IMG/VR virus record: IMGVR_UViG_3300026224_000019
Span: 1-36,209 of that record
Origin: a virus
Taxonomy: Duplodnaviria > Heunggongvirae > Uroviricota > Caudoviricetes
Reading direction: 5' to 3' (one strand)
Length of the DNA stretch: 36,209 nt
Shown: positions 3,991-9,569 of the stretch, piece after piece
Numbering within the stretch: position 1 is the first letter of the stretch
Layout of the letters: each line of letters opens with the position of its first letter
The notes under the pieces: model-generated
Database searches by the model: none
Told to the model about the DNA's origin: nothing
Seen by the model: only the letters and a program-made list of their open reading frames with translations
Translations under genes and position numbers: made by a program

Positions 3991-4185
3991 TCAGGATTTT
4001 GATGCAGGTGTTTCAGTAAAATTCTGGTGTATGATTTTTTCTACCGGATAACAGTTACCGGGAATTTTCTGTTCTTTCATTGCGGCAATACATTCCTCCT
4101 TGCTGTCATAAATACCCGTTACCATATCAACCGGTTCGCTGTTAGCCATAAAAACAAGCATGACCGAGGCCCACATTACACCCAT
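3991..4185 (-). CDS. Small membrane protein (64 aa), possibly YdfD-like
   Basis: Hydrophobic N-terminus (MGVMWASVMLVFMA). Lies immediately downstream of the DicB-like gene, the position of ydfD in Qin. The homology call is from memory only. Confidence 0.45.
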   Translation of the reverse strand: MGVMWASVMLVFMANSEPVDMVTGIYDSKEECIAAMKEQKIPGNCYPVEKIIHQNFTETPASKS

Positions 4186-4373
4186 GATTTTTTCTCCTGG
4201 AAAATGCCAAGTTTAAGAAGGGCGAGTCGGGAAAGCATGGAATTATCATTGAGAAGATAAGGTTCATATTTCCTCATATTAATGGCATCCTCAGTGAAGT
4301 CTTTATTGCTGAGCTGAATGCCAATATCAAAACAACCTTCAGATGTATTAACGTTTGGTAATAACGTTTCCAT
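4176..4373 (-). CDS. dicB: DicB-like cell-division inhibitor (65 aa)
   Basis: N-terminus METLLPNVNTSEGCFDIGIQLSN...FTEDAIN matches my recollection of E. coli DicB (MKTLLPNVNTSEGCFEIG...FTEDAINKRK). GAGGA RBS 8 nt upstream. Lies downstream of the DicF-like RNA as in Qin. Confidence 0.75.
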   Translation of the reverse strand: METLLPNVNTSEGCFDIGIQLSNKDFTEDAINMRKYEPYLLNDNSMLSRLALLKLGIFQEKKSWV

Positions 4374-4390: not shown

Positions 4391-4530
4391 TGAATTTTGT
4401 GATGCGGTGCCTGGTGCCTCCAGGTGACGTTAACCAGTTAACAATTAACGCCGGAGTATTTCACCCATAAGGTTGCTTGTTTTAACTGTTCCGCGTGCGC
4501 TGAGCCGCATTCACCGCATCACAAAATTCA
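4391..4530. repeat. Perfect 19-bp inverted repeat (TGAATTTTGTGATGCGGTG / CACCGCATCACAAAATTCA) flanking 102 bp; candidate RNA duplex / processing site
   Basis: Arms at 4391-4409 and 4512-4530 are exact reverse complements. Inner region holds nested palindromes (CCTGGTGCCTCCAGG, GTTAACCAGTTAAC). Confidence 0.8.
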
Positions 4531-4590
4531 CTTTAAAAAGGGCGGACATCAGCCAGCAATGAAACTGATGCCGCCAAAAGGTAATCAACA
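4531..4590 (-). ncRNA. dicF: DicF-like small RNA with intrinsic terminator
   Basis: Minus-strand sequence ...UUUUGGCGGCAUCAGUUUCAUUGCUGGCUGAUGUCCGCCCUUUUU resembles E. coli DicF as I remember it (UUUGGCGGUAUCAGUUUU...GCCGCCCUUUUU). GC stem (4540-4552 / 4565-4575) followed by a U-run. Located upstream of the dicB-like gene. The 5' end is approximate. Confidence 0.6.
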
Positions 4591-4915: not shown

Positions 4916-5158
4916 ATGCCAACAAAACTATGCCCAGCCTGTAATTCTTCGTCTGATTTCTCAGAGAAGAATGGTTATTATATTTTTGATTGCCCGAAAC
5001 ACGGTGTATTCCATATATCAAAACTTGATGGGATATTTGTGAAACCAAGTCAGTATCAGGCTGACAAGTTAAATAAAATTCTCAATGCCAAAAGAGCGCC
5101 AGGCTATACGGGACCTATAGAGGTTTTACCGCGTCCTCGTCTTGTGGAACTGGATTAA
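4916..5158 (+). CDS. Hypothetical zinc-ribbon protein (80 aa)
   Basis: ATG at 4916 preceded by GGAGG with 6-nt spacing. CPAC...CPKH motif. The only plus-strand gene in the leftward early region. Its 3' end overlaps the convergent 186-aa gene by 44 nt. Confidence 0.55.
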   Translation: MPTKLCPACNSSSDFSEKNGYYIFDCPKHGVFHISKLDGIFVKPSQYQADKLNKILNAKRAPGYTGPIEVLPRPRLVELD

Positions 5159-5675
5159 ACCAGTGCTCCTGAATCGCTCGTATTTTTACCCTCGGATGAT
5201 TGCCGGGGGTGATTATTAATTCTGGCGGACATGGTTCTCCATTATGACAAATTGCGCTATAAGTGAAATCAGCCAGAGCAGTGCCGGTCATTATTATTCC
5301 GAACTTATCAAGCAGCGAGAGCAAATCACGCAAACAGGAGTTATCAGTTTTTTCGTTATAAAATGAATCCCCTGATGCAGAGAGCATTTCACCTCGCTCT
5401 GCGATGCGTTTGACCATTTTCCAGAATTCTTTTTTTGAATACTTTTCCTCGACATAAAAACCCATCGCCGAGGCAATCCGCTTTGCAGCTTCTTCAGTAT
5501 CCTGGTTGTTTGTTACCGAAACAGAGTACAATCCGATAAACGCATCGCGCACATTACGAGCCATATTATCAGTGTCTTTTTTCGTTACCGATTCCAATGC
5601 AAGTTCGTTCAGGTGTTGACGGAGTGTCTGTGCTGCAATCTCCTGGATTGATAGTGGTAAATCTTTAAATTCCAT
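5115..5675 (-). CDS. Hypothetical protein (186 aa), leftward early operon
   Basis: Complete ORF; ATG 11 nt downstream of the YdfB-like stop. No motif recognised. Confidence 0.6.
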   Translation of the reverse strand: MEFKDLPLSIQEIAAQTLRQHLNELALESVTKKDTDNMARNVRDAFIGLYSVSVTNNQDTEEAAKRIASAMGFYVEEKYSKKEFWKMVKRIAERGEMLSASGDSFYNEKTDNSCLRDLLSLLDKFGIIMTGTALADFTYSAICHNGEPCPPELIITPGNHPRVKIRAIQEHWFNPVPQDEDAVKPL

Positions 5676-5686
5676 CTTTAACCCCG

Positions 5687-5815
5687 TTAGCCGTTAGATT
5701 TTGCCGAACTGGAAAGCGCCTGTTTAAACTCACTGAAGCTGAGAGCTTCTTCGCCTTCGGCAAGGCCTTCGAAGTATTCTTCGTAAGCCTTTTCCATGAT
5801 TGTGTCGAAATCCAT
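5687..5815 (-). CDS. Small acidic protein (42 aa), YdfB-like
   Basis: MDFDTIMEKAYEEYFEGLAEGEEALSFSEFKQALSSSAKSNG. Start overlaps the upstream stop (TGAtATG). Same size and position as Qin ydfB. Confidence 0.5.
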   Translation of the reverse strand: MDFDTIMEKAYEEYFEGLAEGEEALSFSEFKQALSSSAKSNG

Positions 5816-5816
5816 A

Positions 5817-5972
5817 TCACTCACCTGAGTTTCTTTCCAGCCAGCGACGGGCACCATTTTCGGTTTTAAACGTTTTGCTTTTGGTATACGTCATCGCGGT
5901 GAACGTACCGTCCTGGTTGGGGAACACGCCACATACCAGAGATTCGCTGTTGCCAAGATCGATAGTATCCAT
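5817..5972 (-). CDS. Small protein (51 aa), YdfA-like (DUF1391-type)
   Basis: Internal ATG (MDTIDLGNSESL...) with GAGGT RBS; matches the size and position of Qin ydfA. The track ORF extends to 6065, but that start has no RBS and sits inside a promoter-like element. Confidence 0.5.
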   Translation of the reverse strand: MDTIDLGNSESLVCGVFPNQDGTFTAMTYTKSKTFKTENGARRWLERNSGE

Positions 5973-6049
5973 GCTGACCTCATTTCCCCTTAACGCCGGG
6001 GTAGCGGAACTGTTTGCTGAGAACACCGTGCGGTGTCTTGATGGATGGT

Positions 6050-6101
6050 AATTTAGTTTTCTCATGAAAATTGGTCAAGTGTTTTTGATGAGAAAACTCA
6101 A
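6050..6101 (-). promoter_or_regulatory. Candidate leftward early promoter and operators (pL/OL-like)
   Basis: Minus strand: TTGACC (6078-6073), 17-nt spacer, TAAATT (6055-6050). Flanked by inverted copies of TGAGAAAACT (6055-6064 reverse, 6089-6098 forward), a motif also present in the OR region. Confidence 0.5.
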
Positions 6102-6165
6102 TATTTAATGCAAAATAAAGCCAATACATTGAAATGTAAGGCTTTAAAATTAGTGAAGGGGGGGG

Positions 6166-6573
6166 TTATTGATGTTTGTTACGTTTGCGAGCTTCTAGTA
6201 GCTCGGTGAATAGGCGATTAAAATTCTCAACGCGGGCACGGAGTTCGCTGATTTGTGCTTGCTGCTCTGATTTTGGAAGTGCGCGATACAATCGCAACAT
6301 CTCCAACTCATCTTCCGATAAGTCTAAGGCGCTGTTGAGTGCAACTGGTGGATCTGGTGTTTTATCCTCGTCACCAAACAGTATCCAAGTTGGTGAACAT
6401 TGCAATACCTCAGCCAGGCGATGCAAATTTTGCCCGCGCGGGGCTGTATGGTCGCTTTCCCATAGTGAAATTGATGAGCCAGATACGCCAGCAGCTTTGC
6501 TTAAATCGTTTTGACTTAAACCAACCTGTTTGCGTCTTTCTCTAATTCGTTGGCCTAAAGTTTTCTCGTTCAT
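6166..6573 (-). CDS. dicA: Prophage repressor, HTH XRE-family, DicA-like (135 aa from Met18 of the track ORF)
   Basis: GLSQNDLSKAAGVSGSSISLWE helix-turn-helix; VLQCSPTWILFGDEDK and MLRLYRALPKSEQ...RARVENFNRLFTELLEARKR match my recollection of E. coli DicA. Divergent from the Cro-like gene. Confidence 0.8.
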   Translation of the reverse strand: MNEKTLGQRIRERRKQVGLSQNDLSKAAGVSGSSISLWESDHTAPRGQNLHRLAEVLQCSPTWILFGDEDKTPDPPVALNSALDLSEDELEMLRLYRALPKSEQQAQISELRARVENFNRLFTELLEARKRNKHQ

Positions 6574-6594
6574 ATTTAGATATCTTAATAACCC

Positions 6595-6637
6595 TTGACT
6601 TGAGATTCCTTGAGTGATTACCATTGAGAAAACTCAA
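6595..6637 (+). promoter_or_regulatory. Candidate rightward early promoter/operator (pR/OR-like)
   Basis: TTGACT at 6595-6600; TACCAT at 6619-6624; palindromic operator TTGAGAAAACTCAA at 6624-6637; GGAGGGG RBS before the Cro-like ATG at 6651. Confidence 0.45.
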
Positions 6638-6650
6638 CTTTGGAGGGGTG

Positions 6651-6878
6651 ATGTTTAAATCAGACGTAATTAATTTTTATGGGACGAAAGCCAAAGTAGC
6701 GAAAGCTGCTGGTGTTGATCCATCTGCTGTTTCTCAATGGGGAGAACTGGTTCCTGAAGGTCGCGCGATGCGCCTGCAAGAGGCATCTGGCGGGGAACTT
6801 CAGTACGATCCCAAAGTTTATGACGAATATCGTAAGGCAAAGCGTGCGGGGCGGTTGAACAATGAAAATCACCCCTGA
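6651..6878 (+). CDS. Cro-like HTH protein (DicC/YdaS family, 75 aa)
   Basis: Divergent from the repressor across an operator-containing intergenic region. ATG 6651 has a strong RBS. C-terminal motif VPEGRAMRLQEASGGELQYDPKVYDEY. Confidence 0.65.
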   Translation: MFKSDVINFYGTKAKVAKAAGVDPSAVSQWGELVPEGRAMRLQEASGGELQYDPKVYDEYRKAKRAGRLNNENHP

Positions 6879-7413
6879 ACAGGTTTGTGAGGCTCTGGAT
6901 GCCTGGGTATGCCGACCAGGAATGACACAGGAGCAGGCGACGATATTAATCACAGAAGCCTTCTGGGCCCTGAAAGAACGCCCGAACATCGATGTTCAAC
7001 GCGTCACGTTTGATGATGGCGCGGTTGATCAACGGGCGCTGGGCGTTAACCGGGTGAAGATATTCGAACGCTGGAAAGCTATCGACACCAGGGATAAGCG
7101 TGAAAAATTCACGGCGCTGATTCCGGCAATTATGGAGGCTATCCGGATCAGCGATTTCAGGTTGTATTGTGAAATTACTGACGGAAAAAGCATTACGTAC
7201 ATGATCGCCGGGTTAAACAAAGAATATGGCGATGTGGTGGAGTCCGGGCTGCTTTTTGCGGATCCAGCTGTTGTGGAACGTGAGACTGACGAGCTTATAG
7301 AAAAAGCTATTGCTTTCAAGCACGCGTATCGTCAGCAATACCAATATTACTTTGCAGATAAACAAATATCTGTCTGGGGTTCGTATGAGTATCGATGCAC
7401 TACGATGGGCTAA
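6862..7413 (+). CDS. YdaT-like protein at the cII position (183 aa)
   Basis: Position immediately after the Cro-like gene with overlapping start; family call from memory, no motif verified. Confidence 0.45.
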   Translation: MKITPEQVCEALDAWVCRPGMTQEQATILITEAFWALKERPNIDVQRVTFDDGAVDQRALGVNRVKIFERWKAIDTRDKREKFTALIPAIMEAIRISDFRLYCEITDGKSITYMIAGLNKEYGDVVESGLLFADPAVVERETDELIEKAIAFKHAYRQQYQYYFADKQISVWGSYEYRCTTMG

Positions 7414-9306: not shown

Positions 9307-9569
9307 GTGAATCAAAATGCCAGGTTAAGGGCAACAAGATAGAACCATGTGCAGCACTGGCAAAGTCCCTTGAGCATGATGCTGAATACACGATGCGAAA
9401 AGGTCTGCTGATATACAAAGTCTGGAATGAGAATTTAACTCGCGCCCCTGATTTGGTGATGTTGCGTTCCGGTGAATTTTCTAAATCACCTATTCGAGTC
9501 TCATTTTGCCCGTTCTGTGGTGAAAGTCTGAAAACATGGAAAAAGGAGACAACCAGTGAGCAAGATTGA
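9303..9569 (+). CDS. Hypothetical protein (88 aa) with C-terminal CPFCG motif
   Basis: GTG start with AGGAGG RBS; overlaps neighbours by a few nt (operon-style coupling). Confidence 0.5.
   Translation: MSESKCQVKGNKIEPCAALAKSLEHDAEYTMRKGLLIYKVWNENLTRAPDLVMLRSGEFSKSPIRVSFCPFCGESLKTWKKETTSEQD

Follow-up and report, generated by a model that had tools for sequence, protein, structure and literature searches.

Putative operators of an undescribed sequence type in the immunity region of a DicA/DicC-type lambdoid prophage

Genes and promoters of the immunity region

The window (the whole 36,209-nucleotide stretch of viral DNA analysed here) contains a lambdoid immunity region with divergently oriented repressor and Cro/DicC-like genes, and a leftward operon that begins beyond the repressor gene. 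Its features are the following.

4176-4373, leftward operon: dicB (Pfam DicB, 111 bits)
4540-4590, leftward operon: DicF-like RNA (full length, 34 bits, below the gathering score of 48)
5687-5815, leftward operon: ydfB, located after ydfA and followed by a 186-aa ORF
5817..5972, minus strand: ydfA (Pfam DUF1391), first gene of the leftward operon
6050..6078, minus strand: PL, the dicBp equivalent, from a promoter scan; -35 TTGACC (6078..6073), 17-nt spacer, -10 TAAATT (6055..6050)
6052..6065, minus strand: putative operator, OL1-equivalent, proximal to the transcription start; ATGAGAAAACTAAA; extends over the PL spacer and four bases into the -10
6088..6101, plus strand: putative operator, OL2-equivalent, distal to the transcription start; ATGAGAAAACTCAA (TTGAGTTTTCTCAT on the minus strand); 9 bp upstream of the PL -35
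6109..6146, minus strand: terminator-like hairpin and U-tract, following the repressor stop codon and preceding the leftward putative operators
6166..6573, minus strand: DicA-family repressor, 135 aa; N-terminal HTH_3 domain (Pfam), recognition helix SGSSISLWES
6575..6588, minus strand: weak, hypothetical candidate operator (OR3?); TTAAGATATCTAAA; near-palindrome I11, ending 1 nt before the repressor ATG
6595..6624, plus strand: PR, the dicCp equivalent; -35 TTGACT (6595-6600), 18-nt spacer, -10 TACCAT (6619-6624)
6600..6613, plus strand: weak, hypothetical candidate operator (OR2?); TTGAGATTCCTTGA; 24 bp from OR1, with a single good half-site
6624..6637, plus strand: putative operator, OR1-equivalent, at the position of K-12 Oc; TTGAGAAAACTCAA; overlaps the last PR -10 base and the expected cro/DicC-like transcription start
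6651..6878, plus strand: Cro/DicC-like regulator, 75 aa (Pfam P22_Cro, 1.1e-17); recognition helix DPSAVSQW

The repressor matched the NCBIfam model NF007257 ("transcriptional repressor DicA") over its full length (residues 1-135 on model positions 1-135) with 238.3 bits against a cut-off of 101, which bears out the original prediction of a DicA-like protein; K-12 DicA scores 234.3 bits on the same model. The two proteins are 55% identical overall (53% in the N-terminal 70 aa and 54% in the C-terminal halves), and the junction VLQCSPTWILFGDEDK is identical in both. A Pfam search of the repressor revealed HTH families only and no LexA/S24 peptidase (autocleavage) domain, and the closest solved structure is the N-terminal domain of P22 C2 (E = 2e-15 over residues 1-72). 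The Cro/DicC-like protein reached 167.6 bits with the DicC model NF007282 (NCBIfam, cut-off 130), and in the alignment its C-terminal half is nearly identical to that of K-12 DicC.

Natural variation was followed in 85 loci sharing the repressor recognition helix, which represent 26 rightward and 42 leftward haplotypes. The repressor start was placed at 6573, since most haplotypes have ATA in place of the upstream ATG at 6624; the 152-aa ORF starting at 6624 was rejected on this ground, and RefSeq also annotates 135 aa. PL, which matches 9 of the 12 consensus positions in the promoter scan, is predicted to be a strong leftward promoter driving ydfA, ydfB, the DicF-like RNA and dicB. The hairpin at 6109-6146 (-11.3 kcal/mol, z = -4.1, followed by UAUUUUG) is kept in the E. 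coli haplotypes.

A clustered 14-bp inverted repeat

The 10-mer TGAGAAAACT, which had been proposed as an operator motif shared by both sides of the repressor gene, was found at all three positions claimed for it (6055-6064 on the minus strand, 6089-6098 and 6625-6634 on the plus strand) and nowhere else in the window. The three exact copies lie within 6052-6637, a span of less than 590 bp, and a motif search revealed no similar frequency elsewhere in the window (three exact copies as against 0.03 expected from 100 dinucleotide-preserving shuffles, none of which contained three matches). The full unit is a 14-mer, TTGAG-N4-CTCAA, and its complete form, TTGAG-AAAA-CTCAA, consists of 5-bp arms (TTGAG/CTCAA) in inverted orientation around a non-palindromic AAAA centre. 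The original description of 6624-6637 as a palindrome thus holds for its symmetric arms and not for the centre, so that it is properly an inverted repeat. This copy (TTGAGAAAACTCAA) is free of mismatches to the 14-mer, while those at 6088-6101 (ATGAGAAAACTCAA) and 6052-6065 on the minus strand (ATGAGAAAACTAAA) have one and two, respectively.

Further matches to the 14-mer, at two or three mismatches, were located in the remainder of the window at 9472, 11152, 14668, 17029, 17654 and 26173, none of them at a divergent promoter; the nine matches obtained in total (3.5 expected) are at chance level, one of the shuffles also having yielded nine. One weaker match, at 6557-6570 (ACGAGAAAACTTTA), falls in codons 2-6 of the repressor; this fourth copy is probably a coincidence and was rejected as an operator, as Buttiauxella reads ATGAATGAAATGACG there. 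A literature search with the 14-mer in both orientations retrieved no paper from the library covered, and the matches to the 10-mer were unrelated primers.

The rightward copy lies over the -10/start region, as had been claimed: it overlaps the last -10 base of PR and the expected transcription start, and 13 nt separate its 3' end from the cro-like ATG (6651). Its core is unchanged in the 26 rightward haplotypes, in Buttiauxella and in the related locus L206. The leftward copies do bracket TTGACC, one being upstream and one downstream of this -35 hexamer, although the original prediction requires correction in detail, as the second extends over the spacer into the -10. These two copies are in opposite orientation, with a centre-to-centre distance of 36 bp (35-36 bp in the relatives).

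In switches of the lambda/P22 type, OR is tripartite, with three repressor sites at intervals of about 24 bp. The OR region here comprises one strong site and two weaker operator-like elements that the original description does not mention, spaced 24 and 25 bp apart and each with two half-site mismatches, the middle pair of half-sites not being kept in Buttiauxella and L206. The block 6600-6613 is conserved in the E. coli haplotypes, while in Buttiauxella and L206 (GCAAGGAAACTCAG) the TTGAG half-sites at 6600 and 6610 read CTCAG and CGCAA; for this reason only the weak candidate 6600-6613 was retained, for which an alternative role as the -35 region of the repressor promoter is conceivable. 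The element TTAAGATATCTAAA is identical in all 26 haplotypes and equivalent in position to the K-12 "Oa", lying 49 bp from OR1 (Oc-Oa, 50 bp in K-12); the same position in L206 reads TTAAGATTTCTAAA, three mismatches from the operator. A leaderless repressor mRNA, a type of transcript described for the CP-933P repressor (PMC8630535), may also originate from a promoter whose -10 lies within 6575-6588.

Comparison with K-12 Qin and with related loci

The Qin prophage of E. coli K-12 has the same organisation, with dicC-like and dicA-like genes diverging from an operator, and then a leftward promoter leading to ydfA-ydfB, DicF and dicB. The repressors of both loci have 135 aa, the same C-terminal half and no RecA-cleavable domain; the two loci also share both -35 hexamers (TTGACT rightward, TTGACC leftward), and in both cases one leftward site is upstream of the -35 and one between the -35 and the -10, 35-36 bp apart. 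In K-12, DicA binds Oc (TTGTTAGTCATAACTAACAA) in vivo, this binding is abolished by single-base mutations, and Oc overlaps the -10 of dicCp, a promoter with a TTGACT -35 and a mapped transcription start (PMC3441716). The distance to the dicC ATG is 14 nt for Oc, as against 13 nt to the cro ATG here, and Oc-like sites at dicBp occupy the OL2 position (L001:1877-1896, in the K-12 locus) and the OL1 position (L001:1912-1931); overall, the operator positions agree within 1-2 bp. The proposed OL/OR layout is therefore the same, relative to promoters and start codons, as that of Oc and the predicted dicBp operators. Only Oc is experimentally supported in K-12, however, as the dicBp sites are predicted and the predicted Om and Oa did not show DicA binding in vivo (PMC3441716), and the argument from position consequently does not prove each of the sites.

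The equivalence of position is accompanied by a difference in sequence. The K-12 operator is TTGTTAGT-CATA-ACTAACAA (20 bp), whereas that of the window is TTGAG-AAAA-CTCAA (14 bp); the repressor helix is SHVSVSQWER in K-12 and SGSSISLWES here, and the Cro helix RLASLYSW and DPSAVSQW, respectively. No Oc-like site was detected in the immunity region of the window at up to six mismatches, nor the 14-mer in the K-12 locus at up to three, so the locus has neither the Oc-type operator nor the helix of the K-12 DicA immunity group. Since operator and recognition helices are both unlike those of K-12, the locus is predicted to be heteroimmune to Qin. The two prophages also differ in that an ORF of 186 aa takes the place of ydfC in the window, and a full YdaT-like gene follows cro. 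At the DNA level, 5689-6043, with the PL leader and ydfAB, is 97% and 6750-7141 90% identical to K-12, while no alignment was obtained for 6044-6749 in between; this stretch reaches from the leftward sites as far as the cro HTH and constitutes the sole non-homologous block between the two prophages.

The motif occupies all three positions in 86 independent loci with the same helix, including Buttiauxella (73-76% identity). In the window, L002-L005 and L206, the repressors are 73-96% identical with the helix S[GD]S[ST]ISLWES, the Cro helix is DPSAVSQW, and TGAGTTTTCTCA is kept at the three positions, in L206 despite different cargo downstream of the leftward promoter. Loci with other helices have other inverted repeats at these positions: K-12-type loci and L009 (SHVSVSQWER) carry Oc-type sites, and L006 (SHATISLWES) a third operator type. 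This co-variation with the repressor and Cro/DicC-like helices, together with the location of the motif inside the only block non-homologous to K-12 Qin, strengthens the earlier proposal that it sets the immunity specificity of the prophage. Because the two helices co-vary together, the comparison cannot tell whether a given site is bound by the repressor, the Cro-like protein or both.

The sites are evidently under purifying selection, as judged from sequence variation. In the 85 loci, operator columns had a mean variability of 0.015 and the remaining intergenic columns one of 0.085 (p = 5e-6 in a Mann-Whitney test, an optimistic value given the phylogenetic relatedness of the haplotypes), and hypervariable columns lie directly at the site edges; a few natural variants have single-base changes within the sites, so that these are not absolutely invariant. 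A scan of viral sequences with protein alignment yielded 80 nearly identical repressors, a set that serves the variation test and not diversity. The exact 14-mer was present in 120 viral contigs, mostly as chance singletons, as expected for a huge collection (107 singletons without a DicA-type protein), and the scan became informative once filtered for clustered copies: all 13 contigs with at least two copies have them adjoining such a repressor. This type of prophage is present in approximately 800 complete E. coli genomes, O157:H7 lineages included.

Alternative explanations and the proposed switch

Taken together, these data support the original interpretation, and the three 14-mers very probably represent the operators of the prophage's immunity switch. 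This reading rests on the excess of copies over expectation, their operator-typical overlap with promoters and the membership of both proteins in the DicA/DicC families, as well as on positional homology with K-12, the module boundaries, helix co-variation and column constraint; the multi-copy contigs beside DicA-type repressors and a 5+4+5 geometry like that of P22 point in the same direction. The design is that of an ordinary lambdoid switch, with an operator sequence that was not previously described.

It is conceivable, though unlikely, that the sites are bound only or mainly by the Cro/DicC-like protein and that the repressor recognises another element, such as TTAAGATATCTAAA at its own start codon. 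The helix DPSAVSQW and the repressor helix co-vary with the motif in exactly the same way, and TTAAGATATCTAAA is invariant among haplotypes; however, this element is also kept in L006, which has another helix and another operator type, and so does not follow the specificity of the repressor. In lambdoid switches, moreover, it is well established that repressor and Cro share common sites. The K-12 data also argue against a purely Cro-directed role, in that DicA binds the positionally equivalent Oc (PMC3441716) and represses dicBp 22-fold, with no effect of a dicC deletion there (preprint 10.1101/2023.04.14.536235). Even less probable is a site for the YdaT-like (CII-like) protein, whose gene follows cro. 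YdaT of CP-933P is described as binding an inverted repeat in its own immunity region (PMC9986795), but its site (TTGATTN6AATCAA) is absent from the window at up to two mismatches. The exchanged module does not include the 5' part of the YdaT-like gene (to 7141), which has 90% identity with K-12 DNA beside dicC; since K-12 shares this part and has different operators, the YdaT-like protein cannot determine the specificity of the motif.

The leftward copies might alternatively form an RNA or DNA hairpin with a role, for example, in termination or processing after the repressor gene, given that they lie in a 20-nt inverted repeat (6051-6070/6083-6102; I1, 90% complementary) whose minus strand folds at -12.1 kcal/mol (z = -3.8). 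We consider this very unlikely and rejected it on the basis of the fold and of haplotype variation: the stem is A/U-rich with a loop of 12-22 nt and no U-tract after it, a separate terminator-like hairpin with a U-tract is present upstream (6109-6146), and transcripts from PL would begin downstream of both arms. Beyond the 14-mers, the haplotypes do not preserve the inner stem: AAAA is constant while its partner TTTT changes, without compensation, to CATT, CACT, TTAA or GCGC. A hairpin also leaves unexplained the third copy 536 bp away and the co-variation with protein helices. There is similarly very little to recommend a chance cluster, for which the expectation is 0.03, or a by-product of duplicated small-ORF starts, despite the fact that ATGAGAAAACT encodes Met-Arg-Lys-Leu and that the ORFs 5817..6065 (minus strand) and 6624..6878 (plus strand) both begin with MRKLN. 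The annotated, conserved starts are located downstream (ydfA at 5972; cro at 6651, with a GGAGG Shine-Dalgarno sequence), the DNA directly 3' of the motif is hypervariable and lacks a codon pattern, and the copy at 6088-6101 heads no ORF of at least 30 aa.

Under the preferred operator reading, a dimer of the DicA-family repressor would sit on each TTGAG-N4-CTCAA through its P22-C2-like helix-turn-helix, with one monomer per 5-bp half-site and indirect readout of the A-tract centre. In the P22 repressor site the four central bases are not contacted and A/T-rich centres are bound best (PMC4267663; solved complexes 2R1J and 3JXB-D), and the symmetric P22 sites with a 4-base A/T centre fit the 5+4+5 layout and invariant AAAA observed here. 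The lambdoid OL/OR arrangement is likewise common to both systems. In contrast, P22 C2 has 216 aa and a cleavable C-terminal domain (preprint 10.1101/2023.04.14.536235), whereas the repressor of the window has a DicA-type C-terminal half; recognition-helix residues 32-34 and 37 align as NVA..Q in P22 and GSS..L here; and P22 uses six 18-bp sites (PMC4267663), as compared with three strong 14-bp sites and at most two weak ones. The CI-Cro systems of lambda and P22 further differ by RecA-stimulated autocleavage (S24), the repressor of the window having no peptidase domain.

Occupation of 6624-6637 would keep RNA polymerase off PR, and with it the cro/DicC-like, YdaT-like and replication genes, while occupation of 6052-6065 and 6088-6101 would block PL, whose cargo includes ydfA, ydfB, the DicF-like RNA, the cell-division inhibitor DicB, an exonuclease, an excisionase and an integrase. 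The centre of the rightward site is 57.5 bp upstream of the repressor start codon, and by analogy with K-12 DicA at Oc this site probably serves in addition to activate the weak promoter of the repressor; the Cro/DicC-like protein probably competes for the same or weaker adjacent sites, which would create a bistable switch. K-12 DicA is antagonised by the antirepressor Rem (preprint 10.1101/2023.04.14.536235). The prophages CP-933P (PaaR2/YdaS/YdaT) and Rac (RacR/YdaS/YdaT) resemble the locus in gene order, the repressor and Cro-like genes being divergent and a YdaT-family gene following them, and in having operators at the PR/PRM region plus a distant PL. PaaR2 and RacR are nevertheless unrelated proteins outside the DicA family, and CP-933P differs also in its 18-bp palindromes (half-site consensus GTTTAGTAA) and in a repressor co-transcribed with a toxin-antitoxin pair.

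Regulators encoded by Rac have reportedly been shown recently to have off-target sites in the host chromosome. A more far-reaching reading, which we regard as unlikely, is that the locus defines an uncharacterised DicA/DicC immunity group with a switch simpler than that of lambda: a single high-affinity rightward site would repress cro and, from -57.5, activate a leaderless repressor transcript, the opposed leftward pair would clamp the -35, and the repressor could have off-target sites on the host chromosome. If such host sites exist, approximately 800 sequenced E. coli strains, O157:H7 included, would carry an unrecognised regulator of host genes.

To conclude, the locus reveals no new mechanism, but a new specificity within the known DicA/DicC kind. 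With K-12 Oc and the Citrobacter braakii type, the operator forms a natural helix/operator series in which specificity change in P22-C2-like HTH domains can be studied. Knowledge of the operator may also be used in the design of reporters or decoys for prophage derepression, and should make heteroimmunity predictable among DicA-type prophages, many of which are co-resident in one cell.

Candidate operators and promoters of the immunity region

The 10-mer TGAGAAAACT occurs three times in the 36,209-bp window, at 6055-6064 (-), 6089-6098 (+) and 6625-6634 (+), exactly where the original prediction had placed it. Only 0.03 copies are expected, three were reached in 0 of 100 dinucleotide-preserving shuffles, and no further exact copy was found in the window. 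Each copy forms part of a 14-mer with inverted 5-bp arms (TTGAG/CTCAA); the palindrome that had been claimed is thus real in the arms, but not in the A-tract centre. The two leftward 14-mers face opposite ways and together form a 20-nt inverted repeat. A consensus scan over 5700-6900 detected exactly two promoter-like sites.

Features of the immunity region
5817-5972: ydfA (DUF1391), left of the repressor gene, where ydfB is also located
6052-6065 (-): leftward 14-mer (OL1), ATGAGAAAACTAAA
6078..6050: leftward promoter, TTGACC-17-TAAATT
6088-6101: leftward 14-mer (OL2), ATGAGAAAACTCAA
6166-6573 (-): HTH_3 repressor gene (135 aa), between the sites
6575-6588: hypothetical weak site, operator-like near-palindrome, TTAAGATATCTAAA on the - strand
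6595-6624: rightward promoter, TTGACT-18-TACCAT
6600-6613: hypothetical weak site, operator-like, TCAAGGAATCTCAA on the - strand
6624-6637 (+): rightward 14-mer, TTGAGAAAACTCAA
6651-6878: P22_Cro-type gene (75 aa), divergent from the repressor gene; a YdaT-family gene is next

The first base of the rightward 14-mer is the last base of the -10 hexamer, and the expected transcription start is covered. On the leftward side, 9 bp separate OL2 from the -35 hexamer TTGACC downstream of it, and OL1 occupies the promoter spacer and the first four -10 bases. That the copies bracket this -35 hexamer and, on the rightward side, overlap the -10/start region had been predicted. The rightward -10 (6619-6624) reads TACCAT in the window and TACTAT in most related prophages; this base change also creates a spurious upstream ATG at 6624, and hence a 152-aa ORF. 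The "MRKLN" ORF starts proved to be artefacts of the motif.

The window represents a lambdoid prophage. Its genes include replication genes of DnaT-like and P-like type and one for a Q antiterminator; a type I toxin-antitoxin locus, hok/sok, is marked by the sok antisense RNA (Rfam RF01794, 11645-11820 (+), 120 bits). The leftward operon continues with a 186-aa ORF, a DicF-like RNA, DicB, an exonuclease and an integrase. The ORF (5115-5675, -), for which no Pfam or NCBIfam family was matched, takes the place of ydfC in K-12 and O157:H7 TW14359. The DicF-like match (4540-4590, -) is full length, with 34 bits against an Rfam gathering score of 48. A second RNA match, STnc100-like (4396-4528, -), likewise falls short of its threshold (40 bits; gathering score 47). 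Both are upstream of the DicB gene (4176-4373), a location which identifies the former as a divergent DicF copy. A poly-C tract of about 4 to 8 C across haplotypes (6158-6165) directly follows the repressor stop codon. Between this stop and the leftward sites there is a terminator-like hairpin (6109-6146 (-), -11.3 kcal/mol, z = -4.1, followed by UAUUUUG), overlooked by a simple terminator scan.

Comparison with the DicA locus of K-12

The repressor matches the NCBIfam family "transcriptional repressor DicA" over its full length (238 bits, cut-off 101), and the Cro-like protein matches "DicC" (167.6 bits, cut-off 130). Identity to K-12 DicA is 55% overall, but only 53% in the N-terminal 70 residues; the two proteins share the VLQCSPTWILFGDEDK junction unchanged and have related C-terminal halves. 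Among solved structures, the P22 C2 N-terminal domain is closest (E = 2e-15). In the alignment, recognition-helix positions 32-34 and 37, which we take to face bases as in the P22 complexes, are unlike those of both P22 C2 and K-12 DicA.

In K-12, DicA binds in vivo to Oc (TTGTTAGTCATAACTAACAA), a site that overlaps the dicC promoter at its -10 (transcription start mapped), and thereby represses dicC and activates dicA; single-base mutations abolish binding, and two more predicted sites, Om and Oa, are not bound (PMC3441716). Moreover, dicBp is repressed 22-fold by DicA, and operators were predicted there (preprint 10.1101/2023.04.14.536235). When the K-12 locus was compared side by side with the window, the -35 hexamers of both promoters were identical. 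From the end of the operator to the start codon there are 14 nt at Oc (dicC) and 13 nt at the rightward site (cro). Oc-like sites flank TTGACC at K-12 dicBp (L001:1877-1896 and 1912-1931, 35 bp apart), as the leftward 14-mers (36 bp apart) do in the window. The site sequences, however, are entirely different: no Oc-like site was found in the immunity region of the window, and no copy of the window motif in the K-12 locus. BLAST aligned 5689-6043 (97% identity) and 6750-7141 (90%) with K-12, and between them only 67 bp of the C-terminal half of the repressor gene (78%). This non-homologous block extends exactly from the leftward operators to the Cro-like HTH, which is how an exchanged immunity ("imm") module is classically defined.

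Co-variation with recognition helices and natural variation

Related loci were retrieved with protein patterns derived from the repressor-DicA alignment and its conserved junction, and the set is therefore independent of the motif. Three operator types were distinguished.

Helix and operator types of related loci
L002, L003, L004 (Buttiauxella ferragutiae), L005 (B. gaviniae), L206 (viral contig): repressor identity 73-96%; helix S[GD]S[ST]ISLWES; Cro helix DPSAVSQW; core TGAGTTTTCTCA at 3/3 positions
L006 (Citrobacter braakii): 67%; SHATISLWES; DRSAVSQW; third site type (TTGTTGAGTTTATTTAACAA and relatives)
L007, L008, L009: 53-55%; SHVSVSQWER; RLASLYSW in K-12-type L008, none recovered in L009; Oc-type sites

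In the first group orientations and leftward spacing (35-36 bp) are kept, while the flanks of the sites differ, and the gene that follows the leftward promoter in L206 is another one. L002, L003 and L007 come from metagenome-assembled genomes labelled Bacillota, Veillonella parvula and Collinsella. Their DicA prophage DNA is of E. coli type, with proteins 96-100% identical to those of E. coli, and probably reflects mis-binned contigs rather than real host range. In the reverse direction, an exact scan of viral contigs for the 14-mer gave at least 120 loci. Among the matches listed, 13 of the 13 with two or more 10-mers within 800 bp adjoin a DicA-family repressor of the same helix type; the 107 singletons, with no DicA-type protein nearby, are chance occurrences in a huge collection.

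Among 85 same-helix loci (26 distinct rightward-region and 42 leftward-region haplotypes), mean column variability was 0.015 in the 42 operator columns vs 0.085 in 112 other intergenic columns (Mann-Whitney p = 5e-6, optimistic because the haplotypes are related, although the raw listing shows the contrast clearly). Variability exceeded 0.1 in 2% and 25% of these columns, respectively. The most variable columns adjoin the site edges, in the leftward promoter spacer and from the rightward site to the cro Shine-Dalgarno sequence. Hypervariable columns next to the cores (6066-6072, 6638-6641 and 6040-6047; also in L010-L089) differ in up to 50% of haplotypes of otherwise near-identical prophages (spacer variants AATTTTC, AACATTC, AATTAAC, AAGCGCC and TGTTAAC), with the 14-mers and promoter hexamers fixed; changes look denser here than in the terminator and leader on either side. 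Within the operators, single-base variants were noted in viral contigs L011, L012, L014, L016, L027, L046 and L061 (e.g. OL2 TTGAGCTTTCTCAT or TTGAGTTTTATCAT; OL1 ATGATAAAACTAAA). In L046 and L061 the rightward site (…CTTAA) and OL2 are both changed and the repressor N-terminus is unchanged. These contigs may be decaying or partly derepressed prophages.

The leftward inverted repeat might alternatively act as an RNA hairpin, as it folds at -12 kcal/mol; however, it lacks a U-tract, its inner stem is not maintained across haplotypes, and it is placed downstream of the better hairpin and upstream of the leftward transcription start. A YdaT-type binding site is excluded, since such sites are known to have a different sequence and the 5' part of the YdaT-like gene is outside the exchanged module. 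The proposed OL/OR layout of a DicA-like repressor appears correct, given the family matches and the positions of the sites, which match those of Oc and the Oc-like sites in K-12. The motif's role in immunity specificity is likewise supported by co-variation with the helices and location in the block non-homologous to K-12.

Proposed mechanism and significance

P22 repressor sites are symmetric and contacted at positions 2-7 and 12-17, with four non-contacted central bases; A/T-rich centres, which narrow the minor groove, are bound best (PMC4267663). TTGAG-AAAA-CTCAA is built in the same way, around an A-tract that does not vary. With a repressor dimer on each 14-mer, the site at 6624-6637 would occlude the rightward promoter, and those at 6052-6065 and 6088-6101 the leftward one. 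The rightward site is centred at -57.5 from the repressor ATG (Oc: -59.5 from the dicA ATG), and by this analogy it probably activates the weak promoter of the repressor gene itself. Competition for this region by the Cro-like protein is probable; the comparative data are compatible with binding of each site by the repressor, the Cro-like protein or both.

The candidate weak elements are located left of the strong rightward site, with spacings of 24 and 25 bp. Element 6575-6588 stops 1 nt short of the repressor ATG; all 26 haplotypes have it unchanged, and in L206 it reads TTAAGATTTCTAAA. It is the positional equivalent of Oa, with 49 bp to the strong site (Oc-Oa in K-12: 50 bp). It is also kept in C. 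braakii despite the other operator type, and could for this reason serve, instead or in addition, as the -10 region (TAAGAT) of a promoter for leaderless mRNA. No Shine-Dalgarno sequence precedes the repressor ATG. This suggests a leaderless repressor mRNA, a weak third operator, or both; lambda cI and CP-933P paaR2 are leaderless (PMC8630535).

About 797 complete E. coli genomes contain this DNA, among them O157:H7 TW14359 and EC4115 (prophage at ompW); phages HannyBb and mEp460 share it at about 92% identity. The annotation of these loci lists no regulatory feature, and no paper containing the 14-mer turned up in the literature searched. To conclude, both the observation and its interpretation hold at the level of comparative analysis. 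The design is the textbook lambdoid/DicA layout, and the result is sound, though not unusual. Its novelty lies in the operator sequence and in the pairing of that operator with a recognition helix, which would define a new specificity.
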